Source: Gemmatimonas sp. (GTDB lineage Bacteria; Gemmatimonadota; Gemmatimonadetes; Gemmatimonadales; Gemmatimonadaceae). From it: DNA of 64,000 bases. Shown piece by piece: positions 639 through 18,152 of the stretch. A program made the position numbers and the translations under genes. Below the pieces are notes generated by a model. It was not told where the DNA came from. It did not search any database and was given only the letters and a program-made list of their open reading frames with translations. Location: positions 2,368,001-2,432,000 of the forward strand of contig OZ257156.1 of the NCBI GenBank assembly GCA_965279375.1, given 5' to 3'. Numbering within the stretch: position 1 is the stretch's first letter; each line of letters starts with the position of its first letter.

Positions 639-3600
639 TCAGCGCGAACGACCCACGCGGAACTTGACCGACGGAATCGCCGTGCGTGCATTCGATGTGG
701 CGCGAGCGGCCGAGCTGCCCATGTGACGCTGACGGCGCGCCGCACCATCCGGCAGAGGCGCCGTGGCACGCGAGACCGCACGCGCAGCCGGCTGCGGATC
801 GAGCCCCGTGCGCACCATGGAGCGCGATGCGCCGGCGACATACGGACCTGAGCCATTGCCCGTCACCAGCGTGCTGTTGTAGCCCACCGCGAAGGCGCCG
901 CCCGCGCCGTTCGGCGAACCGGTCATCGACCAGAGCAGATCGGTGGTGCCGGTGGACATGGTCTGCCAGCTCGTGCCGTTGTAGCGGAGCATCGTGCCCT
1001 GATCGCCGGTCACATACAGATCGCTGACGCTCGGTCCCCACGCGGAGGTGAGCACGCGGGTGGTGCCAACCGACTGCGAGGTCCAGGAACTGCCGTTGAA
1101 GCGATAGGCGACGCCCGCCGCACCGGCCGCGTCCGCCCCGACCGTGAGCAGATTGCTGCTCGTGGTTCCCCAGATGCCGATGAACGTGCCGGAGTTGATC
1201 GGTGAGGCGGTGGTCCACCCCGAGCCATTGAAGCGCATCAACGTGCCGCTCTCACCCGTCGCGTAGACCTCGCCGGACGGAATGCCGTAGATGCCCCAGA
1301 GCGGCGCCGCGAACGTCGCGGAGACGAACCAGCTGGTGCCGTTGTAGCGAATAACCTGGCCGCCCGAGGTTGCCGCGTACACATCGTTGCTGCTCGTGCC
1401 CCAGAGCGCCGTCACCGTTGCGGTGGAGGGGAAGCTCATGGCGGACCAGCTGCTGCCGTTGAAGCGCAGCAGCGTGCCGTTCTCGCCGCCTGCGAACGCG
1501 TCGGTGGCACTGGGCGCCCAGACGGTGTTGAGCGTGACCGTGGTGGGCGTGCTCTGCCGAGTCCATGTGCCGCTGCTGAAGCGATACACCGAGCCCAACT
1601 CACCCACCGCAAACGCGTTCGACGACGACGTGCTCCACACATCGAGCAGGTCGGGGGCGAGATTGATCGTGCTCCATGCGCCACCCGCCAAGCGCATGAC
1701 GATGCCGCGCTGACCGGTCGCGTACAAGTTGCCGGCAGCATCGGCGGACACGGCGTACACCCGCGGACGATACGGCGTACTCGGCAACGAGAGCGTGCTG
1801 GCGTCGAGCTGCAGCAATCCGGCATCGCTGGCGATGTACATCCGTCCACCGCTCGCGCTGGTGCCATCGACGGAATACAGGTCGGACGAAGTCAGACTGT
1901 TGTTGACGAGCGTCCAGTTGGTACCGTCGAAGCGAAGCACCGTACCCACCGTGCCGACGGCCACCACGTTCGTGGTCGACGTGCCCGAGACGCCATACAG
2001 CGTTTCGGCCGTTGGCGTGGAGAGCGGCGACCAGCTGCTGCCGTTGTAGCGCAGCACTGTGCCGGCGACACCCACGGCGAAGCTGACGCCGCCGCTGGTC
2101 CAGATTGCGTTCAACTGCTGTGTGGTTCCCGTCGCCGTGGCAGACCAGCCGCCGCCTGAGAGCCGAAGCGCGGTCCCGTTGGCGCCGACAGCGATCGCGG
2201 ACCCCACACCATCCGACCACACATCCATGAGTGCTTGCGTCGTGCCCGACGACATGCCGGACCAGCTGCCGCCGTTGAAGCGTGCAATGATGCCGTTCGT
2301 GCCGACGGCGATCACATCACTGGCGGAAGAGCCGTGCACGGCGAGGAACTGACCGCCGTACGTCGAACCGCGCGCGGCCACCGACCAGCTGCTGCCATCC
2401 CAGCGGAAGACATCACCCACCACGTTCACGGCGAACGCGCTGTTCGCGCCGAAGCCGATCGTGGAGATGACATCCTCGTAGAGCGCACCACCCAGTCGAG
2501 ACGCTGCCCAGCTGGTGGCGAGCTGCGACGAGGCGACGGTGACGGTGACCGTGTCCTTCTTGCTGGCATCCGCCACTGAGGTCGCGGTGATCAGCGTGGA
2601 GCCCGAGGTGACCGCGTTGACCAAGCCGCTCGCGCTGACCGTCGCCACGGCACCTGCCGACGACGTCCATGTGACAGCCGTGCTCACACCAGGATCGGCG
2701 CTGACGGCAGCGTTCAGCTGCTGCGTTTGACCGACGCTCAGCGAGACGGGACGCGGCGAAAGCGAGACGACGATCGGTCGCGCGGTCACCGTGATGGTCG
2801 CGGTGGCGCGCTTGGTGGTATCGGCGGTGGCGATGGCCGTGATCGTGGAGCTACCGGCACCGACCGCCGTCACCAGCCCCGTGGCATTGACCGTTGCGAC
2901 GGCGCTATTGCTCGTACGCAGCGTGTAGGTGGTGGGCAGTCCGCCGTTTGCCGTCACCACCGTGTTGAGCTGCTGCGTCTGTCCGATGAGCAGTGACGCG
3001 CTCGTCGGCGTTACGGTGACGCTACCCACGGTGGGAGCGGCCACGGTGATCGTCGCCGTCGCGCGCTTGGTGGTGTCGGCGTTCGCGATGGCGGTGATGG
3101 TGGAGGTGCCAGCGCCGGTTGCCGTCACGAGTCCCGTGGCGTTGACAGTTGCCACGGCACTATTGCTGGTGCGCAGCGTGTAGGCGGTCGACAGACCACC
3201 ACTCGCGATGACCACGGTGTTGAGCTGTTGCGTCTGGCCAACCAGCAGCGACGCGCTCGTCGGTGAGACAGCGATGCTGCCCACGCCGGGTGCGGCCACG
3301 GTGATCGTCGCCGTCGCACGCTTGGTGGTGTCGGCGTTCGCGATGGCGGTGATCGTCGAGCTGCCAACCGCACCGGCCGTCACGAGTCCTGTGGCGCCTA
3401 CCGTGGCCACGTTCGTGTTGCTCGAACGCAGCGTGTAGCCGTTGGACAATGCACCGGCGACGGTTACCACCGCCGTAAGCTGCTGCGTCTGTCCGGTGAA
3501 GAGCGTCGCGGTCGTCGGCGTGAGCGAGACGCCGGTGACACTCGGCGCGTTGACCGTCACGAGCGCCGACGCGCGCTTGGTAGTGTCGGCGAGCGAGACG

Positions 3601-5453
3601 GCGGTGATGATCGCCTGGCCCAGTCCATTCATCGTCACGTTGCCCAAGGGCGACACGATGGCGACGGCGGTGTTGCTGGTCCGCCAGCTGACCGCAGTGG
3701 AGAGCGAGCCGTCGGCCGTCACCGTCGCCGTCAGCGGTGAGACGTCACCGACGAAGCCACTCAGATTGGCGGGCGTCACCACCACCGAGCGGACCATGCC
3801 GAGCACTGTGATGCTCGAGGTGGCGCGCTTGGTGGTGTCGGCGGCGGCGAGCATGGTGATGGTCGCGGTTCCCATGCCGACACCGGTGACGACGCCATTG
3901 GCGTTGACCGTGGCGATGCTGGCATCGCTGGTGCGCCAGATGAGCGCGGCGCTGACGCCTTGCGCGACCGTGATGCGACCGGTCAGTGGCCGCTGCTCAC
4001 CGATGGAGATGGTGGCCTGCGACGGAGAGACGCCGACGGACGGCGCGGGCTGCACCGTCACCTGCGCCGTGCCGCGCTTGGTGGTGTCCACGGTAGAGAT
4101 GGCGCTGATCGTCGCCGTGCCCACGGAGTTCGAGCTGATGAGGCCCGACGACGAGACGCTCACGACGGTGGGATTGCTGCTGTGCCAGGTAACCGTGGTC
4201 GGCACCGGCCCATCGGTGACAACGTCAGCGAAGAGTTGATCCTGATCGCCCACGAACTCGGTGATTGCGCTGGGGCGCACGGTCACGCCAAGCACGGACG
4301 GTGTCACGGTCACGACGGCGATGGCGCTGCGCGTTGGATCGCCCGCCGACGTGGCGGTGATGGTCGCGACACCAACGCGGTGGCCCGTGACCGTTCCCGA
4401 GGGGGACACGGACACGATCGATGCATCGCTCGTGCCCCACACGACTGCCGCGCTGAGTCCACCATCAATCACGACCGTCGCTGTGATGCTCGCCGATTGC
4501 TGCACTCCCACGGAGAGCGCGGTGGGAGACACGGTTACTCGGCGGGCGGGCAGCACGGTCAACAGCAATTCGTCCTTGGCGCGCGGATCAGCGATGGCGG
4601 CCACGCGAATGAGGCTCGAACCTACGCTCACCGCGGTGATGGTGCCGTTGGCGTCCACGGTGGCCACGGAAGGATTTTCGCTCGTCCAGACGAGCGCACG
4701 CGTTTGCGTGGAGTCCACATCCAGTTCGGCCTGAATCGTCTTCGCATCGCCCACCCACAGTGTCAACGCGCTGAGTCCCGGCGCGAGGGACACGGTGCGT
4801 GCCGGCGCGACGACGACTGTGGCCGTGGCGACGATGTTCGGGTCGGCGCTGGCACTCGCGCGCACCGTGGTGGTGCCCACGCTGACGCCGGTCACGAAGC
4901 CTGACGCGTCCACCGTGGCGATCGACGGATTGAGCACCGCCCAACGCACTGCCTGGGAGGCGCCCGCATCACCATCGACTGTCGCACGCAGCGGCTGAAC
5001 ATCGCCCACGCGCACACCAAGGGACGCCGGTGCAAGCACGATCGCCTTCACGCCCAGCACGCGCACGTCCACGAATGCGGCTGCGTTGCCCGACGACGCG
5101 CGCACGCGCGTGGAACCAGGGGCACGCGCCACGATCGCCGCCGACGTGCCGCTGCCGGCGACTTCGGCCACCGTCGGATTCTCACTCGTCCACGTCACGT
5201 TCGGCGACGCGAGCGTGCGGCCCGAGGCATCGCGAATGGTGGCGGAGATCGTTTCCGTCGAACCAACGCCGCTGAGCGCCACGGCGGGGACGGAGACGTC
5301 GATCAGCGCTGCGGCGCCGGGGCCGGACGGTGTCGTCGGGCCAGGTGCGGTGATGCCATCGCCTGCCGCAGAGCAGGCAGCGAGAAGCAGGAGTGCGGCG
5401 CCGTTGACCGTGCGAACCAGCGTTGCTGGAACACGCGTGACGAATGCATGCAT
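639..5453 (-). CDS. Large lipoprotein: 11 Big_2 Ig-like domains, a 14-repeat beta-propeller head and a basic tail
   Basis: Lipobox LLLLAA-C about 25 aa after ATG 5453 (alternative start 5507). Eleven ~84-aa repeats (V.P....L..G....L.A.V...W.SS...VATV...G.VT....G...ITA). Fourteen ~40-aa repeats (L..VWG.S...aVG..GT.LRFNG.SW). Confidence 0.85.
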   Translation of the reverse strand: MHAFVTRVPATLVRTVNGAALLLLAACSAAGDGITAPGPTTPSGPGAAALIDVSVPAVALSGVGSTETISATIRDASGRTLASPNVTWTSENPTVAEVAGSGTSAAIVARAPGSTRVRASSGNAAAFVDVRVLGVKAIVLAPASLGVRVGDVQPLRATVDGDAGASQAVRWAVLNPSIATVDASGFVTGVSVGTTTVRASASADPNIVATATVVVAPARTVSLAPGLSALTLWVGDAKTIQAELDVDSTQTRALVWTSENPSVATVDANGTITAVSVGSSLIRVAAIADPRAKDELLLTVLPARRVTVSPTALSVGVQQSASITATVVIDGGLSAAVVWGTSDASIVSVSPSGTVTGHRVGVATITATSAGDPTRSAIAVVTVTPSVLGVTVRPSAITEFVGDQDQLFADVVTDGPVPTTVTWHSSNPTVVSVSSSGLISSNSVGTATISAISTVDTTKRGTAQVTVQPAPSVGVSPSQATISIGEQRPLTGRITVAQGVSAALIWRTSDASIATVNANGVVTGVGMGTATITMLAAADTTKRATSSITVLGMVRSVVVTPANLSGFVGDVSPLTATVTADGSLSTAVSWRTSNTAVAIVSPLGNVTMNGLGQAIITAVSLADTTKRASALVTVNAPSVTGVSLTPTTATLFTGQTQQLTAVVTVAGALSNGYTLRSSNTNVATVGATGLVTAGAVGSSTITAIANADTTKRATATITVAAPGVGSIAVSPTSASLLVGQTQQLNTVVIASGGLSTAYTLRTSNSAVATVNATGLVTATGAGTSTITAIANADTTKRATATITVAAPTVGSVTVTPTSASLLIGQTQQLNTVVTANGGLPTTYTLRTSNSAVATVNATGLVTAVGAGSSTITAIATADTTKRATATITVTARPIVVSLSPRPVSLSVGQTQQLNAAVSADPGVSTAVTWTSSAGAVATVSASGLVNAVTSGSTLITATSVADASKKDTVTVTVASSQLATSWAASRLGGALYEDVISTIGFGANSAFAVNVVGDVFRWDGSSWSVAARGSTYGGQFLAVHGSSASDVIAVGTNGIIARFNGGSWSGMSSGTTQALMDVWSDGVGSAIAVGANGTALRLSGGGWSATATGTTQQLNAIWTSGGVSFAVGVAGTVLRYNGSSWSPLSTPTAETLYGVSGTSTTNVVAVGTVGTVLRFDGTNWTLVNNSLTSSDLYSVDGTSASGGRMYIASDAGLLQLDASTLSLPSTPYRPRVYAVSADAAGNLYATGQRGIVMRLAGGAWSTINLAPDLLDVWSTSSSNAFAVGELGSVYRFSSGTWTRQSTPTTVTLNTVWAPSATDAFAGGENGTLLRFNGSSWSAMSFPSTATVTALWGTSSNDVYAATSGGQVIRYNGTSWFVSATFAAPLWGIYGIPSGEVYATGESGTLMRFNGSGWTTASPINSGTFIGIWGTTSSNLLTVGADAAGAAGVAYRFNGSSWTSQSVGTTRVLTSAWGPSVSDLYVTGDQGTMLRYNGTSWQTMSTGTTDLLWSMTGSPNGAGGAFAVGYNSTLVTGNGSGPYVAGASRSMVRTGLDPQPAARAVSRATAPLPDGAARRQRHMGSSAARATSNARTAIPSVKFRVGRSR
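3037..3353. repeat. Intragenic tandem repeat with 255-bp period (Big_2 units 8-10)
   Basis: 3037-3098 and 3292-3353 match at 61 of 62 nt; a third, more diverged copy lies near 2785-2845. Confidence 0.9.
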
Positions 5454-5834
5454 GGGTGAGGGCACCGATACACGCAGAAGCTGCACCAACCGGGACGAGC
5501 GAATCATTGAGCCTCTGTGCGACGGGCGCCGTGCACCCATCAGCCGTATTGCGCGAAACTGGACGACGCGGAGGGCATCCTTCCCTCGCGCGAGCGAGCG
5601 GGCCTCGACATGGGCCGCCCTTCGCGGAGAGGACGTGCGAGTGTGATGCACGCCTGTTTCACAGCGAGCCAACGATGTCTCGACGCCGGTGCGACTGCCG
5701 ATGACGTGACGCGATTGATCCCAGTGCCGGATCGGTTGGTGCGTCATGCACCATTGCGTCGCAGCAATTGGCCGATCAGGGCCGGCATTCCTGCACTGCG
5801 GTTAACGACAGATTGCATTCATCCAGATGCGACG

Positions 5835-5964: not shown

Positions 5965-7143
5965 TTACCGGCCGTTCTTGCGCTTGCTGACAGGGCGAGA
6001 GCGCACACCCGACGTCGTGAGGTCCGCCACCGTGACGAACGCGGAGCCCGAGCGCATCGGATCCGTCACCGACGTCGCCGTCACCGTCGCGTAGCCCGAC
6101 GCAACCGCCGTGACTTCGCCCGTCGCCGAGACAGTCACGACGTTCGTGTCACTGCTGCTCCACGTCACGTCCGTGTTCAGGCCGGGCTCGATAGTCACCG
6201 TGGCCGTCAGCTGACGCGTGCCACCCTGCACGAGCAGCACGCTGTCCGGTGCCACCGACACGCTGCGTGCCGGCAACACGGTCACGACGATCTCCGCAAA
6301 GGCGCGCGAATCGGCCGCCGAGGTGGCGCGAATGATGGCCGTGCCTTCGCCCGTCGCCGTGATCACACCGCTCGGGTCGATCGTCGCGACCGACGTGTTG
6401 CCGCTGCTCCAGATGATGTCCTTCGACTCATTGGCATCGACATCGGCTTCAGCCGCCAACGTCCGTGCATCGCCGTTCCACAGCGTGATCGCCGAGCCGC
6501 CCGGTGCAAACGACACCGCGCGCGCCGGGTTCACCGTCACAGTGGCCGACGCCGACAAACGCGGATCCGCGTTCGACGTGACCGTCACCGTCGTGCTGCC
6601 GGCAGCGATCGCCGTGATGACGCCTTCCGCGCTGATCTTGGCGATCGACGCATTGGCAATGCTGTACTTCACGCCCTGATCGGCGCTGGGATCGGACTCG
6701 ATGATGGCGCCAACCGACTGATCATCGCCGACGCGAAGGGCGACGGCACTCTGCGCGAACGACACGCTGCGCACGCCGAGCACGCGCACTTCGACTTCCG
6801 CCGAGAACGCGCCCGAGGAGGCCTTGATCGTGGTGGTGCCGGCCGAACGCGCCGTGATGGCGCCTTCGCCGTTGACGTCGGCGACCGCCGGATTGGCGCT
6901 CGACCACGCGACCGCACCAGAGGTGGCATTGCCCGCCGCGTCGCGCAGCGTGGCCTTCACCGTCTCGGCCGCGCCGATGCTGGCGAGCGCGATGCCGTTG
7001 CTGCTCAGTTCGAGCTTGGCAGCCGCGCCAGGCCCCTGAGGAGCAACGACGCTGTCGGACGAGGAGCAGGCCGTCAACGCGACGACGGTTACAGCACTGG
7101 CGGCGAGGGCGCGGAGCGACTTCGTCGAAAGCAGGGTACGCAT
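5965..7143 (-). CDS. Lipoprotein with 4 Big_2 Ig-like domains and no propeller head
   Basis: RBS GGAGA before ATG 7143. Signal MRTLLSTKSLRALAASAVTVVALTA-C. Four Big_2 repeats and a basic tail RSRPVSKRKNGR. Confidence 0.85.
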   Translation of the reverse strand: MRTLLSTKSLRALAASAVTVVALTACSSSDSVVAPQGPGAAAKLELSSNGIALASIGAAETVKATLRDAAGNATSGAVAWSSANPAVADVNGEGAITARSAGTTTIKASSGAFSAEVEVRVLGVRSVSFAQSAVALRVGDDQSVGAIIESDPSADQGVKYSIANASIAKISAEGVITAIAAGSTTVTVTSNADPRLSASATVTVNPARAVSFAPGGSAITLWNGDARTLAAEADVDANESKDIIWSSGNTSVATIDPSGVITATGEGTAIIRATSAADSRAFAEIVVTVLPARSVSVAPDSVLLVQGGTRQLTATVTIEPGLNTDVTWSSSDTNVVTVSATGEVTAVASGYATVTATSVTDPMRSGSAFVTVADLTTSGVRSRPVSKRKNGR

Positions 7144-7453
7144 AGAATCTCCGGACAATTCGGAATGGACGACCGAGTGTCGTCGCAACGGGTGTGTCGG
7201 CCTGGGCTCGATTCCAGGCTCGATTGGCTGGGGCGAGAGCGATCGGACTGCGCTCACCTGCAGGTCTCGGCAGCTAGACGACGCCCCGTCCCAACTCACC
7301 CGTCACGCCGCTGGCACTTTTCGTGTCGCTGTCGGTCCTTGTGCCGGTGGTGTGACGGTCCGTGACATGCTGGCACGGCTTCTGATACAATCGCGTGGAC
7401 GAGCGTCGAGACGATCCCGCAGCGGACGATTCCGCAGCGTTCATGCTGTAAGC

Positions 7454-7519: not shown

Positions 7520-10500
7520 TCAGCGATGCTTGCGCTTCGCGCGCGCGGCTCCGCTGGGAATGGTGCGACGCATCAACGCCGACTTGGAACGGCGAGCGGC
7601 AGCCGACGGCTCGAGCGAGCCCCGGTTGCCAGCAGAGAGCGACGCGAAGAGCGGCGCGGGTCCCTTGGCTCCGGTCACGATCAGGCTGTTGTAGCCCACG
7701 GCGAACGCACCACCCGATGCATCGGGAGCACCCGACACACTCCAGAGCAGATCCGTCGTCGGAAGCGAGACAGGCTGCCAGAGTGCGCCGTCGTAGCGCA
7801 GCAGCGTGCCGATGTCGCCCGTGACGTAGATGTCGTTGAGGCTCGGTCCCCAGATGCTGGTGAGCACACGTCTCGTACCGAGGCTGAGCTGTTGCCATGC
7901 GTTGCCATCGAAACGATAGGCGAGACCCAGGTCACCCGTGGCGTCCGCGCCGACCGCGGTAACGTCGGTGATGCCGCTCATCCAGAGACCGACAATCGTG
8001 CCGTTCGCGGGCGTGGGCAGCTGCGACCACGTCGTGCCGTTGAAGCGCAGCATCGTCCCGCCTTCACCGCCGGCGTACACCTCGCTGGCATTGACGCCGA
8101 AGATCGCTGTGAGCGCGCGCGGCGCGGTCGCCACCACGCTCCAGCTGGTACCGGCGTAGCGCACGATCTCGCCGGCATCGGTCACCGCATACACGTTGCT
8201 GTTGCTGGTGCCCCAGATCGACGTGACGTTGGCCAGCGATGGAAATGCCATCGTGCGCCAGGCGCCTCCCGTCCAGCGCAGGATTGTGCCGTTGTCGCCA
8301 CCGGCGAATGCCTCGTTGGCTGCGGGCGCCCAGACGGCGTTGAGCGCCGCGAGTGTCGGGGTTGTGTCTCGCGTCCACGCGGAGCCGTTCCACCGATAGG
8401 CGAATCCGAATTCGCCGACGGCCCACGAATTCGTACTCGATGTGGTCCACACATCCAGCAGGTCAGGAGCGATACTCAGCGTCTGGAAGGTGTTGCTCCC
8501 TGAGGCAGCGCGCATGACGACGCCGCGCTGTCCGCCGGTCCACACCGAACCGCTGGCATCCATGTGCACGGTGAAGAGATTCGGCGCGTATGGCGTCGCG
8601 GTCGTCGACACGGTGTTGCCGTCGAGTTGCAGCAATCCGTCGTCGCCAGCGATGTAGCTTCGCCCGTTGTTGGCGGTGGTCGCCTGCACGGCCCACATAT
8701 CTCCGCCACGCTCGTTGTTCGGAACGATCGACCAGTTGGTGCCGTCGAAGCGCAGGATCGTGCCGAACGAACCCACCGCGATGATGTTGCTGCTCGACGT
8801 GCCGCTGATCGCGTTGAGCGCCTCGCTTGTCGGTACGCTCACGGTGGACCACGTGTTGCCGGCAAAGCGCAATACGACGCCGGCCGTGCCCACCGCATAG
8901 CTCACGCCGTTCGATGACCAGACACCATTGAGCGTCTCGACCGTTCCCGTGGCCGTACTGGACCAGTTGCCGCCAGCGAGACGGAGCGCCGTGCCGTTCG
9001 CGCCGACCGCGAACGCACCACCCAGTGAATCGACGAACACGTTGTTGAGCACGCGCGTGGTGCCGGACGACATCGTCGTCCACTGCACGCCATCCCATTT
9101 GATGATCGCGCCGTTGGTGCCGACCGCGATCACGTTGTTGAAGGCCGTTCCGTGCACCGAGAGGAAGCGCGTCGAGTACGTGGCCCCCCGAGACGATGCC
9201 GTCCACACGGAGCCATTCCAGAGGAATACGTCGCCGGCGAGGTTGACGGCGAAGGCCGTCGACGAACCGAAGCTGACGATCGACTGGATGTCGTCGTAGA
9301 GCGGGCCATTGAGTCGCGCGGGCGTCCAGTTGGTCGCCAGCACTGGCAGCACGGACACCGTCACGGTGTCGCGTCGTGTGGGATCGGCGACGGCGGACGC
9401 GGTGATGACCGCCGAACCAAGCGCGACGGCCGTGACGACACCACTCGTGTTGATGGAAGCGACGCCCGCGTTGGAGGAACTCCACGTGACACCGGTCGCC
9501 ACACCAGGATTCGCACTCACCGTGGCCGTGAGTGCAGTGCTGCCACCCGGGTTGAGGCCGACAGTGCGCTGCGTGATGGCTACGGTGGTCGTACGCGAAT
9601 TGACCGTCAGCGTGGCCGTGGCGCGCTTGGTGGTGTCTGCGGTCGACAGCACCGTGATCGTCGCCGTGCCGACGCCCGTGGTGGTCACGAGACCGCTGTT
9701 GCTCACCGTAGCCACCGCGGCGTTGCTGGACCGCCACGTCACGGCGTTGCTGATCGTGCCATCAACGGTGACGGTGCTCGTGAACTGTTGCGTGGCGCCC
9801 CAGAACACCGACGCGGTGGTCGGTGCCACGGTGACGGTGCGAACACTCGGCAGCACCGTGACGACGGCGGTTGCGCGAACGAGTGTGTCGGCGACCGCGA
9901 CGGCGGTGATGGTTGCCGTACCATTGGCGACACCCGTGACGACGCCGGCCGCGCTCACCGTGGCCACTGCAGCAGCGCTGGTACGCCAGGTGACTGCGGT
10001 GCTGAGGCCAGCATCCATGCGCACCGTGGGCACGAGCGTGCGCTGGTCGCCGGCCACGATGCTCACCGACGTGGGGGCGAGCGTGACCGACCGCTGCGCG
10101 GTGACGGAGAAGGTCGCGGTCGCGCTGAAGCGCGCATCCCCGACGGAGGTGGCACGAATGGTCGCGTTGCCGATGCTGACACCCGTGACCACGCCGGCTG
10201 CACTCACCGTCGCCACCGCCGGATTGTCGCTCGCCCACGTCACGGTCGTCGGGAGACCCGGATCGGCGGTGACGGCAGCGGTCAACGTTTGCGTATCACC
10301 CACGCGAATCGCGGCCGCCGACGGCGTGACCACGACGCTGCGCACGCCGAGCACCTGCACCTGCACCGGCGCACTGACTCCGCCGGACGTCGCGGTGATC
10401 GTCGCTGTGCCCGGGCTCACCGCCGTGATCGTTGCCGTCGTACCACTCGGACTGACGATCGCTACCGTCGGCGCGCCGCTCGACCACGTCACTGAAGCGG

Positions 10501-10729
10501 AACTGAGCGAGCCTCCCTTGTCGTCCTTCACACTCGCCGTGATGGCGGCAGTGGGAGACGACGGCGAAAGCGAGACGGTTGCGGGCGTGACCACGATGCT
10601 CGCTGCGGCCTTGGGGCCGTCGCTGCTGCAGGCGGCGAGCGCCGAGAGCAACGACACACCCGTGAGCAGCGGCAACCATCCGAACGGCGGCCACGCGGCG
10701 CGAACGATACGACGGGAACGAGAGGACAT
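7520..10729 (-). CDS. Lipoprotein: 5 Big_2 domains and a 14-repeat beta-propeller head (paralogue of 639..5453)
   Basis: Lipobox LSALAA-C. Five Big_2 repeats. The head aligns blade by blade with 639..5453 (LATNW/LATSW, GQRG.VMR, APDLLDVW, GGAFAVGYNS). Confidence 0.88.
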   Translation of the reverse strand: MSSRSRRIVRAAWPPFGWLPLLTGVSLLSALAACSSDGPKAAASIVVTPATVSLSPSSPTAAITASVKDDKGGSLSSASVTWSSGAPTVAIVSPSGTTATITAVSPGTATITATSGGVSAPVQVQVLGVRSVVVTPSAAAIRVGDTQTLTAAVTADPGLPTTVTWASDNPAVATVSAAGVVTGVSIGNATIRATSVGDARFSATATFSVTAQRSVTLAPTSVSIVAGDQRTLVPTVRMDAGLSTAVTWRTSAAAVATVSAAGVVTGVANGTATITAVAVADTLVRATAVVTVLPSVRTVTVAPTTASVFWGATQQFTSTVTVDGTISNAVTWRSSNAAVATVSNSGLVTTTGVGTATITVLSTADTTKRATATLTVNSRTTTVAITQRTVGLNPGGSTALTATVSANPGVATGVTWSSSNAGVASINTSGVVTAVALGSAVITASAVADPTRRDTVTVSVLPVLATNWTPARLNGPLYDDIQSIVSFGSSTAFAVNLAGDVFLWNGSVWTASSRGATYSTRFLSVHGTAFNNVIAVGTNGAIIKWDGVQWTTMSSGTTRVLNNVFVDSLGGAFAVGANGTALRLAGGNWSSTATGTVETLNGVWSSNGVSYAVGTAGVVLRFAGNTWSTVSVPTSEALNAISGTSSSNIIAVGSFGTILRFDGTNWSIVPNNERGGDMWAVQATTANNGRSYIAGDDGLLQLDGNTVSTTATPYAPNLFTVHMDASGSVWTGGQRGVVMRAASGSNTFQTLSIAPDLLDVWTTSSTNSWAVGEFGFAYRWNGSAWTRDTTPTLAALNAVWAPAANEAFAGGDNGTILRWTGGAWRTMAFPSLANVTSIWGTSNSNVYAVTDAGEIVRYAGTSWSVVATAPRALTAIFGVNASEVYAGGEGGTMLRFNGTTWSQLPTPANGTIVGLWMSGITDVTAVGADATGDLGLAYRFDGNAWQQLSLGTRRVLTSIWGPSLNDIYVTGDIGTLLRYDGALWQPVSLPTTDLLWSVSGAPDASGGAFAVGYNSLIVTGAKGPAPLFASLSAGNRGSLEPSAAARRSKSALMRRTIPSGAARAKRKHR

Positions 10730-10734
10730 GGCGG

Positions 10735-12609
10735 TCAGCTCACAGTGCGCGGCGCAGTCATCGCCGCGGGGTTGAGGAGGTCATCCAACTGCGCTCGCGT
10801 GAGCAATCCGCGTTCCAGCACCAACTCGAACACACCGCGGCCGCCATCCAGTGCGGTGCGTGCGATATCCGTTGCCGCTTCGTATCCGATCACCGGCACG
10901 AGTGCTGTGACGATACCTATGGAGTGTTCGACGAACATGCGCATGCGATCTGCATTCGCCGTGATTCCAGTCACGCAGCGCTCACGCAACACGAGACAGG
11001 CGTTGCGCATCATGTCGATGCTGTGCAACAGACGATACACGATCACGGGTTCGAACGCATTCAACTGCAGTTGCCCCGCTTCGGCCGCCATCGTGACGGT
11101 GACATCGCCGCCGATGACATCGAAGCAGACCTGATTGACGACCTCGGGGATGACGGGATTGACCTTGCCGGGCATGATCGACGATCCGGGCTGCATGGGC
11201 GGCAGATTGATCTCCCCGAATCCACAGCGCGGACCCGAGGAGAGCAACCGCAGGTCATTGCAAATCTTCGACAACTTCGTCGACGTGCGCTTGAGGATAC
11301 CGGACAATTGCACGAATGCACCAGTGTCGCTCGTCGCTTCCACGAGATCCGGCGCGGTGATCACGGGCACAGAAGTGATCTCGGCCAATTTCGCTGCCGC
11401 GAGTGCGGCATATCCGACGGGCGCGTTGATGCCGGTGCCGATCGCGGTCGCGCCAAGGTTGATCTCGCGAATAAGCAGCTGCGCCTCGCCCAACCGATCC
11501 ACATCTTCGCGGAGCGTGTTGGCAAAGGCAGTGAACTCCTGGCCGAGCGTCATGGGGACCGCGTCCTGCATCTGGGTGCGTCCCATCTTGAGCAGCGGTG
11601 CGAACTCGGTGCCTTTCTCGCCGAATGCATTGGCAAGGCGCGCGAGTTCCAGCCGGAAGATGCCCAGACTCTGGTGCAGCGCCAGACGCACCGCCGTCGG
11701 ATAGACGTCGTTGGTGGACTGGCTGAGGTTGACGTGGCTGTTGGGCGAAACGGTCTCGTAGTCGCCGCGCGGCTTGTTGAGCAGCTCGAGCGCACGATTG
11801 GCGATGACTTCGTTGGCGTTCATGTTGGTGGACGTGCCGGCGCCGCCCTGAATCACGTCAACGAGAAAGTGTTCGTGATGACGTCCGGCGCGGATCTCGC
11901 GCGCAGCGCGCAGGATCACATCGGCGATGGTCGGCTCGAGGAGACCCAGGTCGAGGTTCGTTTGCGTGCACGCTTCCTTCACGGCGGCCAGGGCTTCGAT
12001 CAGCAGCGGATACTCGCGCAGCGGAATGCCGGTGATCGGGAAGTTCTCGAGCGCGCGCAACGTCTGTACCCCGTACAGCGCTTCGAAGGGCACCTCGCGC
12101 TCGCCCAGCAAGTCTTTTTCCGTGCGCGTGCGATGTCCGCCGAAACCCAGCGTCCGTCCGCGCCCGACGAGCGTGGCGTCGGCGTGGCGCAGGCGGTTGG
12201 AGATCGTGCGGGCGGCGCGGGCGACGAGTGCGGCATAGAGCTGTGGCGATTCGCGCACGATTTCGTCGACGTGCGCTCGCGTGAGCAGCATCGCGCGACC
12301 GGGCATGATCACGCGCGCCGTGGTGCCGTGGCGTGTGTCGTCGAGCAGCAGACCTTCGCCCACCGCGTCGCCGGCACCGAAGGTGACCAGCCGCACGCTG
12401 CGACCGTCCGAGTTCTTCTCGATGGCGACGGCGCCGCTGATGAGGATGGCGAGCTGATGACGCTCGTCGCCTTCGTTGAAGAGCGTTTCGTCGGTGACGA
12501 GGTCGTGCGGCGTGACGTGACGCGACAGCTTCCACAGATGCGAGTCGTTGAAGCCCTCGAGGAAGACAATGCCGCGAAGGGCGTCGGCGATTTCGGCCGG
12601 TGAGGTCAT
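10735..12609 (-). CDS. aspA: Aspartate ammonia-lyase with N-terminal cyclic-nucleotide-binding domain
   Basis: Aspartase motifs GGAGTSTNMNANE, SQSTND, KMGRTQMQDA and GSSIMPGKVNP. The first ~150 aa have a CNB pattern (LFNEGD..LAILISGAV...VGEGLLL). Confidence 0.92.
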   Translation of the reverse strand: MTSPAEIADALRGIVFLEGFNDSHLWKLSRHVTPHDLVTDETLFNEGDERHQLAILISGAVAIEKNSDGRSVRLVTFGAGDAVGEGLLLDDTRHGTTARVIMPGRAMLLTRAHVDEIVRESPQLYAALVARAARTISNRLRHADATLVGRGRTLGFGGHRTRTEKDLLGEREVPFEALYGVQTLRALENFPITGIPLREYPLLIEALAAVKEACTQTNLDLGLLEPTIADVILRAAREIRAGRHHEHFLVDVIQGGAGTSTNMNANEVIANRALELLNKPRGDYETVSPNSHVNLSQSTNDVYPTAVRLALHQSLGIFRLELARLANAFGEKGTEFAPLLKMGRTQMQDAVPMTLGQEFTAFANTLREDVDRLGEAQLLIREINLGATAIGTGINAPVGYAALAAAKLAEITSVPVITAPDLVEATSDTGAFVQLSGILKRTSTKLSKICNDLRLLSSGPRCGFGEINLPPMQPGSSIMPGKVNPVIPEVVNQVCFDVIGGDVTVTMAAEAGQLQLNAFEPVIVYRLLHSIDMMRNACLVLRERCVTGITANADRMRMFVEHSIGIVTALVPVIGYEAATDIARTALDGGRGVFELVLERGLLTRAQLDDLLNPAAMTAPRTVS

Positions 12610-12851
12610 GACGGGTATCGGAACGGCGCGTTCCGCGCCGAAGATGAACTGCGCCGAACGGGCGCAGCGATCAGAAAATCGGGGGGAGGTGCTGCAGAGG
12701 GATCGGCTCGGTCGGCGGGACCCTGTCGAGCCGGTGGTGAAATAGTGGCGTGCTGGACCGTACTCTCGCTACCAGTGGCTCCGGGTGATATGGTGTGCCT
12801 GTCGTTCAATTCGCCCGATCCGTGCAGCCGTCACGTCCTGGAGTGTGTCCC

Positions 12852-13949
12852 GTGTCCGTGTCCGTGTCCCGTCGCGACTTTCTCGAGCGCTCTGCCGCGC
12901 TTACTGCTGCAGGATTCCTGCCGCGTCTGACTACCCCCGACGCAGACGAAGGCGCCCGCGCAATGTTAGGGACTCTCTCCGCTGAGGCACCGGCGCCGGG
13001 AGTATTCCGGGCGCGTCCGATCGTGATCGCCTCCGCCAACGGCATCCGGGGCGTGAAGGTGGCCTACGACCAGATCGTGGCGGGCGGGGATCCCCTCGAC
13101 GCCGCGATCGCGGGCGTGAACATCCAGGAGCTCGATCCGAACGACCAGAGCGTGGGGTTGGGCGGACTCCCCAACGAAGAGGGCATCGTCCAGCTCGATG
13201 CCTCCTGCATGCACGGCCCCACGCGCCGCGCGGGTTCGGTCAGCTGCATCGAGGACATCGCCACGCCCAGTCTCGTGGCCAAGGCGGTGATGGACTACAC
13301 CGACCACGTGATGCTCGTAGGGCCGGGTGCCAAGAAGTTCGCGCTGGCGATGGGCTTCAAGGAACAGAACCTGCTCACGGAAAAGACCCGTCAGGATTGG
13401 ATGCGCTGGAAGGCACGGCTCAACAAGAGCGACGCATGGCTCGATCACGATGACGACATCAAGATCAAGTTCACCACCGGCACGATCAACATGAATGCGG
13501 TCACCGCCAACGGCGACATCGGGTCGGTGACCACCACCAGCGGCATGGCGTGGAAGATCCCCGGGCGCATTGGCGACAGCCCGATCATCGGCGCGGGGCA
13601 GTACTGCGACAACACCGTGGGCGCGGCCGGCAGCACGGGGCGCGGCGAGGCCAACATCAAGGTGTGCGGCGCCTTCCTCGCCGTGGAGTTCATGCGCCAG
13701 GGGCTGCAGCCGCAGCAGGCGCTGCTCAAGGTCGTCGAGCGCGTCATCGCCATGACCGAAGATCGTCTGCTTGGCCCCAACGGCCGGCCGTACTTCGATC
13801 TCGATTTCTACGCCGTCACCAAGGACGGCCGCTACGCCGGCGTGTCGTGCTACGAAGGCAGCCGGTTTGCGGTCTGCGACGAAAAAGGCGCCCGTCTGGA
13901 GACGAGCGCCTATCTCTACAAGGCGAGCGAGCGCCCGAAGCCGAGATAA
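12852..13949 (+). CDS. Tat-exported N4-(beta-N-acetylglucosaminyl)-L-asparaginase / isoaspartyl peptidase family (Ntn hydrolase)
   Basis: GGAG RBS at 12840 and GTG 12852. Twin-arginine SRRDFL. Motifs SVGLGGLPN..G.VQLDAS, G/TIN cleavage site and TTTSGMAWKIPGRIGDSPIIGAG. Confidence 0.88.
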   Translation: MSVSVSRRDFLERSAALTAAGFLPRLTTPDADEGARAMLGTLSAEAPAPGVFRARPIVIASANGIRGVKVAYDQIVAGGDPLDAAIAGVNIQELDPNDQSVGLGGLPNEEGIVQLDASCMHGPTRRAGSVSCIEDIATPSLVAKAVMDYTDHVMLVGPGAKKFALAMGFKEQNLLTEKTRQDWMRWKARLNKSDAWLDHDDDIKIKFTTGTINMNAVTANGDIGSVTTTSGMAWKIPGRIGDSPIIGAGQYCDNTVGAAGSTGRGEANIKVCGAFLAVEFMRQGLQPQQALLKVVERVIAMTEDRLLGPNGRPYFDLDFYAVTKDGRYAGVSCYEGSRFAVCDEKGARLETSAYLYKASERPKPR

Positions 13950-13962
13950 ATCTTACGCGGCG

Positions 13963-14682
13963 CTACTTCGCGATGCCCGCAGGGAGTTCGAACAGCTTGG
14001 GATCGTTCGGCGTGAAGGTGACGCTATTGATCGTGAGTACGACGTCTCCCTGCGCGGTGCCCTGAATCTGCGTGGTCGCAATCAGCTTGCCCTCGAACGT
14101 CTTGTAGTCGCGATAGGTGGCCGTGACTACGCCGTCGGGCGCCTTGATCACCTGCGCGCGACGCAGCCCCGTCGCCACTTCGAAATAGTCGGTCCGGTCG
14201 CGGCCGCCCTTGGTGGTGATCTCGACCTTATAGCATTCGACCCCGTCGAACGGCTCCTTCGCCACCACGGCGGCCTTCGAGAAGCGTGACGGATCGAGGA
14301 ACGCGGCACCCAGCATGTTGGCCTCACCGGCGTCGACTGCTTCGGCGCCACTCACTTTGGCCATCGAGCCGTCGGGCTGCCCGCGCCAGATCGTCGTGCC
14401 GTCGCTTCCTTGCTCAACGCGCCCCATCCCGAAATCGATGATCATGCGCACCTTGCTGGGCGCCGAGCTGTAGCGATCGTACGTGCCTGAGATGTTGGCG
14501 AAGGTGATGTTGGCCGAGCCTTTCTCAGCGCGGTGCTCCACCTTGGCCCACGCGTCGCGACCGCCCACGGCCGCGGCGTACTTGTCATAGACCTGCTGGA
14601 CGGTGGGGAGCTGTGCCTCAGCGCGCGAGTGCATGGCAACGGCGAGAGCAGCGACGGCGGCAACACGACGGACCGGGAACAT
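13963..14682 (-). CDS. Secreted beta-rich protein, possibly LolA-like / lipoprotein-sorting fold
   Basis: Sec signal ending AEA-Q. N-terminus LPTVQQVYDKYAAAVGGRDAW, YFEVATGL and C-terminal DPKLFELP resemble uncharacterised LolA-like proteins; the fold is inferred. Confidence 0.6.
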   Translation of the reverse strand: MFPVRRVAAVAALAVAMHSRAEAQLPTVQQVYDKYAAAVGGRDAWAKVEHRAEKGSANITFANISGTYDRYSSAPSKVRMIIDFGMGRVEQGSDGTTIWRGQPDGSMAKVSGAEAVDAGEANMLGAAFLDPSRFSKAAVVAKEPFDGVECYKVEITTKGGRDRTDYFEVATGLRRAQVIKAPDGVVTATYRDYKTFEGKLIATTQIQGTAQGDVVLTINSVTFTPNDPKLFELPAGIAK

Positions 14683-14713
14683 GACGACTCCGATGTAGGT
14701 GAGTGCCGAACGA

Positions 14714-14739
14714 TACGTGGCCGACCACCGCGTTGTTTC
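14714..14739 (-). promoter_or_regulatory. Candidate ECF-sigma promoter GAAAC-N17-CGTA
   Basis: Minus strand gaaac-aacgcggtggtcggcca-cgta, about 30 nt upstream of ATG 14682. Confidence 0.5.
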
Positions 14740-14754
14740 TCGCTACTTTCTGCG

Positions 14755-15219
14755 ATGCCTCTCTTTCCGTTCGGTTGGGTGCACTATCTTCTCGGCGGCC
14801 TCGCCATCGGGCTGGGCGTGTCGCTGCTGTATCTGCTCACGGGACTCGTGGGCGGCATGAGTTCCGTCTACTCGTCCACCTGGTCGTGGGCGGTGAAGCG
14901 CCCGTTCTTTCAGGAGCCGGGGCTGCTCAACAGCCGTCGCTGGCGACTTGCCTACTCGGCCGGTCTGATCGTGGGGGCCGGCGTCTGGTGGCTGGGGTTC
15001 GGGCACGGCGTACGCGTCGCAGTCTCTGTGCCTGTCGCGCAGCTGTTCGTTGGCGGGATCATCACCGGCTACGGCGCGCGGTTGTCGCGCGGCTGCACGT
15101 CGGGTCACGGCATCTGCGGCATGGCGTCGCTGCGACTGCCGTCGTTGGTGGCCGTGCTCACCTTCATGGCGACGGCCATGGTGACGGCCAACGTGGTCGC
15201 ACGCATCGGGGGGCGCTGA
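14755..15219 (+). CDS. YeeE/YedE family sulfur-compound transporter subunit
   Basis: GG.AIGL start and GARLSRGCTSGHGICG motif; about 4 TM segments. Confidence 0.85.
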   Translation: MPLFPFGWVHYLLGGLAIGLGVSLLYLLTGLVGGMSSVYSSTWSWAVKRPFFQEPGLLNSRRWRLAYSAGLIVGAGVWWLGFGHGVRVAVSVPVAQLFVGGIITGYGARLSRGCTSGHGICGMASLRLPSLVAVLTFMATAMVTANVVARIGGR

Positions 15220-15221
15220 CC

Positions 15222-15644
15222 ATGGCCTCGTCACCGCGGGGGACAATCGCTGCCGCACTTGGCGCAGGCGCGCTCTTTGGCTTCGGGCTCGCCCTGTCCA
15301 CGATGATTCGTCCGGAGATCGTGCTGGGGTTCCTGCGGTTCGAGGACTGGGGGTTGATGCTCGTGCTCGGGGGAGCGGTCCTGGTCACGATGGTCGCCTA
15401 TCAGCTCGTGCCGCGTCTCCTCGAGCGCCCGTTGCTGGGCGGCGTGTTCGGAAAGCATGCCTCACGGCTCGATCGTCCGACGATCATTGGCGCGGCGGTC
15501 TTCGGCATCGGCTGGGGGCTGACAGGCGTGTGTCCGGGGCCCGCGATCGCAGGCCTCGGTGCGGGGAGCTATGAACTGCTCTTTGCGGTGGCCGGTATCG
15601 CGCTGGGCGCACTGCTGCAGGGGCTGATCGCTCGGGAGCCCTGA
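15222..15644 (+). CDS. YeeE/YedE family partner subunit (DUF6691-like)
   Basis: GALFGFGL..S.M..P and GIGWGLTGVCPGP motifs; starts 2 nt after the preceding gene. Confidence 0.85.
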   Translation: MASSPRGTIAAALGAGALFGFGLALSTMIRPEIVLGFLRFEDWGLMLVLGGAVLVTMVAYQLVPRLLERPLLGGVFGKHASRLDRPTIIGAAVFGIGWGLTGVCPGPAIAGLGAGSYELLFAVAGIALGALLQGLIAREP

Positions 15645-15710: not shown

Positions 15711-18152
15711 ATGACGCACCCCGACCAGAGCATTCCCGCGCCCTACGAGCCGTCCACCGTCGAGCCCCGCTGGCAGCAGCGGTGGGCCGAACGTGGCACC
15801 AACGCCGTCGATCTCGACCGCGCCGATCGTCCGTTCTATTCGCTGATGATGTTCCCGTACCCGTCGGCCGAAGGGCTGCACGTGGGGAATCTTTTCGCGT
15901 TTACCGGCAGCGACATTTCGGCGCGCTTCCATCGGCTGCAGGGCCATCAGGTGTTTCAGCCGCTCGGGTACGACGCGTTCGGCATTCACTCGGAGAACTA
16001 CGCGCTCAAGATGGGCGCGCACCCGATGGAAATGACGCCGCGCAATGTCGCGAATTTTCAGCGACAGCTCGAGCGTGCGGGGTTGATGGTGGATTGGCGG
16101 AGCAAGGTCGACACGTCGCGTCCCGACTACTACAAATGGACGCAGTGGGTCTTCCTGCAGCTCTACAAGCAGGGGCTGGCCTACAAGAAGGCGGCGGCGG
16201 TCAACTGGTGCCCCAACGACAAGACCGTGCTCGCCAACGAGCAGGTGGAAGGCGGCTTCTGTGAACGGTGTGGCGCTGCCGTCGAGCAGCGTTTTCTGGA
16301 GCAGTGGTTCTTCCGCATTTCCGACTACGCCGGTCGTCTGCTGGATAATCTCGATACGCTCGACTGGTCGGAGATCACCAAGCACGCGCAGCGCAACTGG
16401 CTGGGCCGCTCGGAGGGCGCCGAACTAACGTTCGCCATCGACGGGCGCGATGAAACGGTTCGCGTGTTCACCACGCGCGCGGACACGATTTTTGGTGCCA
16501 CGTATCTGGTGCTGGCGCCCGAGCATCCGCTCGTCGGCGCCGTCACGACCGACGCGCAGCGTGCGGCGGTGCAGGCGTATCAGGAGACGACCACCAAGCA
16601 GGACCTGATCACGCGGAAGTCGGTGAAGGACAAGACCGGCGTGTTCACGGGCGCGTACGCAATCAATCCGGCCACCGGCGCCAACGTGCCCATCTGGATC
16701 GCGGACTACGTGCTGATGGAATACGGTACCGGTGCGATCATGGCGGTGCCGGGGCACGACGAACGCGACTTCGAATTTGCGCAGGTATTCAAGCTGCCGA
16801 TCGTGCGCGTGGTGGCCGGGCCTGATGACGCAGGGGACACGCCGTTGGGCGACGCGGCCTACACCGACGACACCGGTGGACGTCTGGTGAATTCCGGCGC
16901 GTTCGACGGGCTCGCGGTGCAGGAGGCCAAGAACAAGGTCACGTCGTGGCTGGCCGAGGGCGGTCATGCGACGCCGGTGACTAACTATCGGTTGCACGAC
17001 TGGTGCATCTCGCGGCAGCGCTATTGGGGTCCGCCGATTCCGATCATTTACTGCGACGACTGCGGCACCGTGCCAGTGCCCGAGTCGCAGTTGCCGGTGG
17101 AGCTGCCGTACCTCGAAGACTTCAAGCCGGATGACTCGGGCGTGTCGCCCCTGGCCCGCGCGACCGAGTGGTATCACGTGAACTGTCCGACGTGCGGCAA
17201 GCCGGCGCGTCGCGAGACGGACGTGTCGGACACGTTCCTCGACAGCTCGTGGTACTTCCTGCGCTATCCCAGCAACACGCGCGACGACGTGCCGTTCGAT
17301 GCCACGCGCACCAAGACGTGGCTGCCGGTGAACTCGTACATCGGCGGCAACGAGCACGCCGTGCTGCATCTGCTCTACTCGCGGTTCGTGACGATGGTGC
17401 TGCACGACGGTGGACATCTGGGCTTTGAAGAGCCGTTCACCAAGTTCCGCGCGCATGGCATGATCATTCGCGAAGGCGCGAAGATGTCCAAGTCGAAGGG
17501 GAACGTGATCAACCCCGACGTCTACATGGAAGAGTGGGGCGCCGACGCGTTCCGCATGTATCTCATGTTCCTCGGGCCGTACGAAGAAGGCGGCGACTTC
17601 CGCGACGCAGGCATCAGCGGCGTGCGTCGGTTCCTCGAGCGGCTCTGGAGCTCGGTGCGCGATTGCACGACGGACGGCACGGCCGACGCCGATGTGCTTC
17701 GCAAGCTGCACCGCACGATCAAGAAGGTGGGCGATGACACCGCGCGCCTGAGCTACAACACGGCCATCGCGGCGATGATGGAGTATCTCAATGCGGTCCG
17801 TCGTGGCGAGCGTACCGCGCATCGCGACGAAGTGTTGCCGTTGGTGCAGCTCGCGGCGCCTTTCGCACCGCATCTCGCCGAAGAGTGCTGGAGCACGCTC
17901 GGACACACCGCGAGCGTGTTTAACTCAGGGTGGCCGTCGTTCGACCCGGCCATGCTGGTGGACGATTCCATCGAGCTGGTCGTGCAGGTCAACGGCAAGG
18001 TGCGCGGCAAGGTGACGGTGGCGACCGATGTCTCACAGGACGACGCGATGGCCATTGCGATGGCCGACGCCAACATCGCCAAATTCGTCGTGGGCGAGAT
18101 CAAGAAGGTCATCTTCGTGCCCAAGCGGTTGCTCAACATTGTCGTGGGGTGA
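15711..18152 (+). CDS. leuS: Leucine--tRNA ligase
   Basis: MFPYPS..LHVGN (HIGH-like), GTGAIMAVPGHDERD editing domain, DW.ISRQRYWG, KMSKS and C-terminal VQVNGKVR. Confidence 0.98.
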   Translation: MTHPDQSIPAPYEPSTVEPRWQQRWAERGTNAVDLDRADRPFYSLMMFPYPSAEGLHVGNLFAFTGSDISARFHRLQGHQVFQPLGYDAFGIHSENYALKMGAHPMEMTPRNVANFQRQLERAGLMVDWRSKVDTSRPDYYKWTQWVFLQLYKQGLAYKKAAAVNWCPNDKTVLANEQVEGGFCERCGAAVEQRFLEQWFFRISDYAGRLLDNLDTLDWSEITKHAQRNWLGRSEGAELTFAIDGRDETVRVFTTRADTIFGATYLVLAPEHPLVGAVTTDAQRAAVQAYQETTTKQDLITRKSVKDKTGVFTGAYAINPATGANVPIWIADYVLMEYGTGAIMAVPGHDERDFEFAQVFKLPIVRVVAGPDDAGDTPLGDAAYTDDTGGRLVNSGAFDGLAVQEAKNKVTSWLAEGGHATPVTNYRLHDWCISRQRYWGPPIPIIYCDDCGTVPVPESQLPVELPYLEDFKPDDSGVSPLARATEWYHVNCPTCGKPARRETDVSDTFLDSSWYFLRYPSNTRDDVPFDATRTKTWLPVNSYIGGNEHAVLHLLYSRFVTMVLHDGGHLGFEEPFTKFRAHGMIIREGAKMSKSKGNVINPDVYMEEWGADAFRMYLMFLGPYEEGGDFRDAGISGVRRFLERLWSSVRDCTTDGTADADVLRKLHRTIKKVGDDTARLSYNTAIAAMMEYLNAVRRGERTAHRDEVLPLVQLAAPFAPHLAEECWSTLGHTASVFNSGWPSFDPAMLVDDSIELVVQVNGKVRGKVTVATDVSQDDAMAIAMADANIAKFVVGEIKKVIFVPKRLLNIVVG

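Follow-up and report, generated by a model that had tools for sequence, protein, structure and literature searches.

A cyclic-nucleotide-binding domain with a non-canonical pocket is fused to aspartase in Gemmatimonadota and other bacteria

Introduction

Why would an aspartase carry a cyclic-nucleotide-binding (CNB) domain, and what, if anything, might that domain bind? The question is raised by a gene in a 64,000-nucleotide stretch of a Gemmatimonas sp. genome (NCBI GenBank assembly GCA_965279375.1, contig OZ257156.1, positions 2,368,001 to 2,432,000; hereafter the window), in which one open frame encodes a CNB domain followed by a complete aspartate ammonia-lyase. A preliminary description, made from the nucleotide sequence, drew attention to a His at the conserved Arg position of the CNB cassette, proposed that aspartate deamination is gated by a second messenger or by another ligand, and knew of no characterised example of such a fusion. 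On this last point we agree: no report of a CNB–aspartase fusion was found in a literature coverage that leaves out most subscription journals, and two surveys of CNB and CRP proteins do not mention it in the parts available; less common architectures might appear in the supplements of PMC2246266. In databases, these proteins already bear the label 'aspartate ammonia-lyase', with their Pfam domains precomputed.

Domain architecture and distribution

Profile matches and motifs identify the encoded protein as an aspartase, and the fold of its N-terminal part identifies that part as a CNB domain. Its parts are the following.

10735..12609, minus strand: CNB–aspartase fusion gene, 624 aa (P0001), a single open frame with Pfam and NCBIfam matches.
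12163..12609, minus strand: N-terminal CNB/CRP-type effector domain, residues 1-149, with a long C-helix and without a DNA-binding helix-turn-helix (HTH) (Pfam PF00027, AlphaFold2, fold search).
12460..12462, minus strand: Arg50 in the beta2-beta3 loop, at the site of PKA Gly169 and E. coli CRP Ala36; family signature (alignments; 398/398).
12316..12360, minus strand: phosphate-binding cassette, residues 84-98, GEGLLLDDTRHGTTA, with Gly84-Glu85 retained, Gly86 for Leu/Met, His94 for Arg and Thr96 for Ala.
12193..12195, minus strand: Arg139 on the C-helix, equivalent of CRP Arg123 and NtcA Arg129, placed by the RL motif (398/398).
12133..12162, minus strand: short linker, residues 150-159, of low model confidence (predicted local distance difference test, pLDDT, <50 at 145-158 in the full-length model).
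10738..12132, minus strand: complete aspartate ammonia-lyase of the Gln type, residues 160-624, with GRTQ as in E. coli AspA (profiles, solved relatives, active-site alignment).
11158..11187, minus strand: catalytic SS-loop GSSIMPGKVN, with Ser476 (AspB Ser318), Met479, Lys482 and Asn484 (active-site alignment; residue roles from PMC11744663).

Pfam places cNMP_binding at residues 39-120 (score 48.4 bits, gathering cut-off 27.5, E 9e-13), Lyase_1 at 169-500 and FumaraseC_C at 566-618. These are the only three families matched at E ≤ 0.1; no HTH was found in the 624-aa protein, and the lyase comes after the C-helix. The preliminary description of a complete aspartase with an in-frame N-terminal CNB domain is therefore borne out, by one frame and by cNMP_binding and Lyase_1 matches above cut-off.

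The fusion is also conserved among relatives, as had been proposed for checking. The nearest of them are named Gemmatimonas or Gemmatimonadaceae, and all three domains are present in 120/120 of the best matches listed. A profile of 17 diverse fragments matched 1091 long proteins at E ≤ 1e-20, and the 120 of these that were listed all carry the three domains (120/120); they come from the FCB group, Ignavibacteriales, Zixibacteria, Aminicenantes, Bacteroidota and Acidobacteriota, further source names being Tenuifilum, Desulfobacterales and Pirellulales, and Atlas clusters point to Ignavibacteriota, Gemmatimonadota and Verrucomicrobiota. Within the phylum, a CNB query matched 59 of 301 genomes: 54 of the loci are in frame with aspartase (one in the unpublished genome G154), one is frameshifted (G086) and four encode other CNB proteins. 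Among metagenomic loci 79/80 are fused, the remaining one being cut off by the contig end. We rejected an assembly artefact as the source of the fusion, given the recurrence of the three-domain architecture in relatives and metagenomic loci. The fusion is real, old, widespread and built from known parts, and apparently uncharacterised.

A few unusual family members were seen along the way. Frameshifts lie inside the fusion gene in three metagenome-assembled genomes (L089 in G086; L079 in G248, with the break near the CNB start; L227 in G308), from assembly error or decay. Two single-member clusters could be real derivatives or assembly products: P0153 (210 aa), a family-type CNB with only a C-terminal aspartase-like tail, and P0148 (159 aa), a family-type CNB that stops after the linker. 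Another protein, P0254, has two CNB domains and, by eye, an apparent hydrogenase small-subunit-type Fe-S domain.

The aspartase half

The lyase matches the NCBIfam model PRK12273 (aspartate ammonia-lyase) with 715.6 bits against a cut-off of 510, and stays below the cut-off of fumC_II (447.7 against 664.75); for TIGR00839 its 648.6 bits fall slightly below the cut-off of 681.2, which the relatives P0293 and P0286 exceed. The closest solved relatives are stand-alone aspartases (PDB 6wng, E. coli 1jsw, Bacillus YM55-1 1j3u), which share the catalytic and substrate residues and, in the case of E. coli, GRTQ. They align only with residues about 160-622, whereas the fusion has an extra 159-residue N-terminal effector domain with which no listed solved aspartase chain aligns. 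The active site is invariant at 14/15 positions in 101/101 fused members (including S476, M479, K482, N484, T259, S298, T299, N300, T345 and Q346), Ser477 being found in 96/101, and the E. coli-type Gln346 occurs in all 101. Catalytic activity (Asp → fumarate + NH4+) can safely be predicted from such a site.

The fusion as the genome's sole aspartase was rejected, since an unfused His-type (GRTH) paralogue of 46% identity (L002, G000:C1:4100750-4102120) likewise scores above the aspartase cut-off; the genome encodes a class I fumarase as well. L002, a member of the aspartase/fumarase superfamily, does not exceed the fumC cut-off, and genes similar to it are frequent in the phylum.

The pocket of the CNB domain

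An AlphaFold2 model of residues 1-160 (pLDDT 92) has the CNB fold, with a beta-roll and a 28-residue C-helix (122-149). The best fold matches were CRP, PKA-R and the CNB domain of PycTIR, and four entries share the top score of Z 18.4. The 50 matches listed include neither NtcA nor CooA, which excludes neither.

Pocket conservation was counted over 398 full-length fusions from Gemmatimonadota, the FCB group, Acidobacteriota and others, one of them from the unpublished G154. Arg50, Gly59, Glu85, His94 and Arg139 are invariant (398/398) while CNB identity to the query drops as low as 22%, and G84 (383/398), G86 (391/398) and T96 (367/398) are nearly so. Position 87, which corresponds to PKA Ala202, varies and frequently holds a bulky residue (L 181, A 116, S 53, I 26, V 14; together 390/398). 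Exceptions occur among incomplete members: one truncated metagenomic member (L159) has Tyr for His94, and the fragment P0189 lacks Arg50.

His94 falls on the canonical cassette Arg both when the relative P0179 is aligned with solved PKA/PKG chains and when P0001 is aligned with E. coli CRP and the genome's own CRP; Arg50 aligns with PKA Gly169. The His first noted in this gene is thus confirmed, and conserved in every full-length fusion surveyed, and the pocket is indeed non-canonical. His alone is not distinctive: FNR, CooA and PDZ-GEF (PMC2246266) and unrelated degenerate CNB domains have it too. The family-specific feature is Arg50, which the preliminary description overlooked. According to Kannan et al. 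(PMC2246266), Gly169 of cAMP binders touches the guanidinium group of Arg209, and the two residues are conserved together, so that with Arg50 and His94 both cAMP hallmarks have been replaced at once. Among 300 CNB domain matches scored, Arg50 appears in 41, always with His94 and never with Arg94 (matches gapped at either site were not counted), and is confined to this family or its fragments; His94 without Arg50 is found in unrelated multi-CNB proteins, and His or Tyr is a frequent substitute for the cassette Arg in degenerate domains. Read from these alignments, the Arg50-His94-Gly86 set is the signature of the family and His alone a common degenerate state. We also considered Arg93, the residue before His94, as a shifted canonical Arg, and rejected it: Arg occurs there in 4/120 best matches, and the position is Pro in 84/100 diverse representatives.

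Does this pocket resemble any that has been described? By its residues and the lack of an HTH, the domain falls outside the canonical binders of cyclic nucleoside monophosphates (cNMPs), the CRP transcription factors, the NtcA site and the kinetoplastid nucleoside site. From the first it departs in lacking the cassette Arg (PKA R209, CRP R82) and Gly169, and it keeps the ribose-binding Gly-Glu. The mycobacterial acetyltransferase Pat, to which the fusion protein has a weak NCBIfam match, is gated by cAMP and likewise carries its CNB domain N-terminal to a catalytic domain, albeit a different one. The same order is found in PycTIR (8jsk, cUMP), a tied best match (Z 18.4, root-mean-square deviation 2.6, 141 aligned), which has another catalytic domain and, unlike the fusion, keeps the cassette Arg (R97; PMC11224242); no cyclase gene adjoins the fusion. 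With CRP/CAP proteins (M. tuberculosis CRP 3i54/3d0s, C. glutamicum GlxR, E. coli CRP) it shares the fold, the long C-helix, the cassette Gly-Glu and the C-helix Arg, and differs in having no HTH, an enzymatic output, His for the cassette Arg and Arg for the beta2-beta3 Gly/Ala; the RS and TS signatures of cAMP binding (PMC10187061) are absent. NtcA, which binds 2-oxoglutarate in the same pocket through Arg88 and Arg129 (PMC12937710, PMC6243067), shares the C-helix Arg and sets a precedent for a carbon/nitrogen metabolite there, but keeps the cassette Arg and has Val at the cassette Glu position (PMC2246266), the reverse of the His and Glu of the fusion, and its Glu134 site is acidic (Asp) in just 213/398 fusions. 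Trypanosomatid PKA regulatory subunits have similarly lost the cassette Arg, kept Gly-Glu and changed ligand, reusing the pocket for nucleosides, with a decisive Glu at the Ala202 site (PMC10959531), where the fusions have L, A, S, I or V.

The His itself could suggest a heme or a gas/redox sensor of the CooA or DNR kind, with His94 as axial ligand and fumarate production tied to O2, NO or CO. CooA ligates heme with a His at the Arg209-equivalent position (PMC2246266), where the fusion has its His and heme binding would be putative, and the Tyr of L159 at this site would fit. We nevertheless regard a heme sensor as very improbable: the cassette has the canonical length and carries several charged residues that never vary, in contrast to the shorter motif of FixK and CooA (PMC2246266), no conserved Cys was found in the domain among diverse representatives, and the neighbourhood is not heme-related.

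Or could the pocket simply be empty? The domain would then be a structural or interaction module, its cavity filled by salt bridges of Arg50, Glu85, Asp90, His94 and Arg139, serving dimerisation, stability or partner docking. SdrP, HB099 and DdrI fill the CRP-family cavity in this way (PMC12937710), a known state of the family that the ligand interpretation of the preliminary description left unconsidered. The His at the Arg position, also seen in FNR (PMC2246266) and, as His or Tyr, common in degenerate CNB domains, would fit such a module, as would the often bulky position 87 and the loss of the domain on at least two occasions. On the other hand, ordinary aspartases need no such structural part, the cassette length and Gly84-Glu85 are canonical, and an empty cavity poorly explains an invariant pocket and a whole effector domain kept over many phyla. 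We hold a ligand-free module to be a minority possibility.

Cyclase co-occurrence

Perhaps the domain is a cNMP sensor still, with Arg50 as a relocated phosphate-binding Arg, His94 adding some pH dependence, and cAMP or cGMP gating aspartate catabolism. The ribose-binding Gly84 and Glu85 are retained, and the genome encodes both a conserved FHA-GAF class III cyclase (L198:4612-6150; G000:C1:4601611-4603152), which would be the source of the signal, and a CRP with a canonical cassette, whose C-helix end, RLRQAD, resembles the RLRHAD of the fusion. Known cNMP binders, PycTIR with cUMP included, use the cassette Arg (PMC11224242, PMC10187061), which speaks against it.

Co-occurrence with cyclases bears on this reading, in genomes that are mostly incomplete and, as kin, not independent; class III cyclases were searched broadly and CYTH in five genomes, and the absence of a cyclase from a metagenome-assembled genome is weak evidence. 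In one family (f1), a class III cyclase is present in 45/46 genomes with the fusion and 0/7 with a CNB-less aspA, the latter clade also being without a CRP orthologue; among the 15 f1 genomes without this aspA, 12 have the cyclase and three, of genus g5, do not. No CNB with the canonical Arg was found at the 12 loci inspected in ten cyclase-less Gemmatimonadaceae genomes. The f1 co-loss of cyclase, CRP and CNB speaks for a cNMP, but is confined to one clade and so counts as a single event. A second family (f4, 60 genomes) has no such association: a cyclase was not detected in 13/40 fused and 5/20 unfused genomes (12/39 and 5/18 without the unpublished G339, G341 and G342), and some of the cyclase-less fused genomes are 98-100% complete. 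G016 and G103 have an intact pocket and no class III cyclase found, and G314 has lost the CNB domain and kept five cyclase matches.

Co-occurrence as proof of cAMP was accordingly rejected, being strong in f1, without association in f4 and contradicted by G314. On balance, a cyclic nucleotide is not obligatory for the CNB domain; the second-messenger branch of the initial proposal is weakened because 13/40 fused f4 genomes have no detectable class III cyclase, and we consider a cNMP sensor unlikely.

As a separate observation, nearly all Gemmatimonadales genomes tested have a class III cyclase domain; in the genera g5, g9 and g21 neither it nor the CRP orthologue was found.

A metabolite sensor in cis?

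What, then, might the domain sense? We favour, with a little less than even confidence, an allosteric sensor acting in cis for a common metabolite, an amino acid or a non-cyclic nucleotide, and not 3',5'-cAMP. The invariant pocket, the paired replacement of both hallmarks, the occurrence of Arg50 only with His94, the retention of the domain in genomes without a cyclase, and its loss from G314 all lend this metabolite sensor tentative support.

In such a mechanism, an active aspartase tetramer would bear one CRP-type effector domain on each subunit. The canonical Arg site having been vacated by His94, positive charge would be supplied by Arg50 from the adjacent beta2-beta3 loop; a small anion could then bridge the cassette and the C-helix, shifting the helix as in CRP or NtcA, and the short linker may relay the movement to the lyase, for instance through a bias on closure of the SS-loop, a step that a neighbouring domain influences in AspB (PMC11744663). 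The ligand class we prefer is an amino-dicarboxylate that signals nitrogen status, namely Glu, Asp or Gln. One of its carboxylates would be bound by Arg139, much as NtcA uses Arg129, its alpha-amine by Glu85, and its distal carboxylate by Arg50/His94. A Glu85 kept beside Arg139 would suit an alpha-amino acid, NtcA with its keto acid having Val there. Stimulation of E. coli AspA by the nitrogen sensor GlnB (bioRxiv 10.1101/2021.03.01.433382, citing Schubert 2020) gives nitrogen-status control of the aspartase reaction a precedent. The trypanosome PKA precedent makes a non-cyclic nucleotide or nucleoside, bound through Gly84/Glu85, about equally likely; taken singly, each of the two classes is unlikely.

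Several observations weigh against a metabolite sensor. The same invariant charged residues could be the buried salt bridges of a ligand-free cavity, and loss of the CNB domain has been tolerated in several lineages. The Gemmatimonadaceae clade that lost it has neither class III cyclase (0/10) nor CRP orthologue (0/10), which fits a cNMP. In the full-length model, linker residues 145-158 lie below pLDDT 50 and the placement of the CNB domain relative to the lyase is not fixed; and inter-domain covariation is no better than phylogenetic noise over the 398 sequences (effective number 127). Aspartase residues that track the CNB domain (M472, R557, E577, M617) were not accepted as an interface, as they are mostly kept in the CNB-less Gemmatimonadaceae clade.

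Evolutionary history

Seven Gemmatimonadaceae genomes have an aspA 70-74% identical to that of the fusion and no CNB domain within the 7-kb locus, with leuS at 7/7 of these loci and the asparaginase gene upstream at 3/7, as in the window. In an aspartase tree of 53 rows chosen from 124, six of them form one clade (92/90) within the fused Gemmatimonadaceae (100/100), and G314, of family f4, represents a second, independent loss; CNB-less orthologues nested in the fused clade amount to at least two independent losses.

Could ordinary aspartases have the same origin? A fused protein is the sister (100/99) of the unfused enzymes from Azospirillum, Paracoccus, Massilia, Streptomyces and Rhodococcus, and this group sits in a 26-row clade with Gemmatimonadota (100/99; Shimodaira–Hasegawa-like approximate likelihood ratio test 99 in a tree rooted with E. 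coli FumC); a 28-row tree does not resolve the nesting of the Azospirillum/Streptomyces-type enzymes. Approximately unbiased (AU) tests reject a grouping of the fused proteins together with their Gemmatimonadota losses (p 0.0017; p 0.013 with the 28-row tree), so that some ordinary stand-alone aspartases probably descend from the fusion. Nesting of E. coli AspA inside the fusion was not established: it had 83/97 in one tree and was unresolved in the FumC-rooted one, and an AU test placing AspA outside the fused group was not rejected (p-AU 0.44).

The two halves have travelled together. A CNB tree recovers the main groups of the aspartase tree, 34 CNB domains forming one clade against four outgroups (95/93, with bootstraps that had yet to settle completely), and distances among the CNB domains correlate with those among the aspartases (Spearman 0.78 between the matrices, 0/2000 permutations). 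A single old fusion with repeated losses is the simplest account, and a moderately supported one, given that sampling of unfused enzymes is thin. A bolder scenario, which we think quite improbable, is that a single fusion event took place close to the root of the Gln-type aspartases, that many stand-alone aspartases (the Azospirillum/Paracoccus/Streptomyces group and perhaps E. coli AspA) shed the CNB domain, and that the pocket, rewired by a shift of the arginine out of the cassette into the beta2-beta3 loop, has an amino acid, for instance glutamate or aspartate, as its ligand; if true, the CNB fold would gain a ligand class not known for it before, and the protein would be a carbon/nitrogen switch in one piece.

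Genomic neighbourhood

Around the fusion gene, where a promoter and terminator scan returned nothing, the window holds the following.

12795..13949, plus strand: divergent Asparaginase_2-family gene with a weak match to a twin-arginine translocation (TAT) signal, outside the fusion (Pfam).
14533-15644, plus strand: Sulf_transp / DUF6691 membrane-protein gene pair, between the asparaginase gene and leuS.
15711-18152, plus strand: leuS, divergently upstream of the fusion in Gemmatimonadaceae, CNB-less orthologues included.
639-5747, 5965-7299 and 7520-10729, minus strand: three Big_2 Ig-repeat genes in tandem, after the fusion on the same strand.

Within Gemmatimonadota the repeated neighbours are Asparaginase_2, leuS, Ig-repeat, cytochrome oxidase and QRPTase-domain genes. 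Asparaginase_2 is upstream in 43/82 loci and leuS in 26/82, counts that are lower bounds owing to short flanks and come from partly redundant loci; the asparaginase is a possible source of aspartate. The nearest Big_2 gene begins 5 bases past the fusion stop, and similar genes lie downstream in 25/82 loci, all close kin. The 94 neighbouring open reading frames inspected, most of them from distant metagenomic loci, reveal neither a pathway nor a cyclase that recurs beside the fusion; at the distant loci leuS alone is repeated (4 loci). Gene context was rejected as a clue to the ligand, the neighbours at distant loci being unrelated apart from this leuS. Its position directly upstream in four distant FCB-type loci (L100, L102, L104, L111) hints at ancient synteny.

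Conclusions

Both parts of this protein, and CNB-gated enzymes as such, were already known, and the fusion is not a new kind of system. Aspartase stands at the junction of amino-acid nitrogen and the tricarboxylic acid cycle. A dedicated sensor on it would amount to a so far undescribed point of post-translational control, retained in Gemmatimonadota, the FCB group and further bacteria that are abundant but for the most part uncultured. With its invariant Arg50/Glu85/His94/Arg139 pocket the domain forms a CNB subfamily of its own, for which the domain-less orthologues are natural, ready-made controls. If the fusion is ancestral, it would alter our view of how a textbook and industrially used enzyme family evolved.

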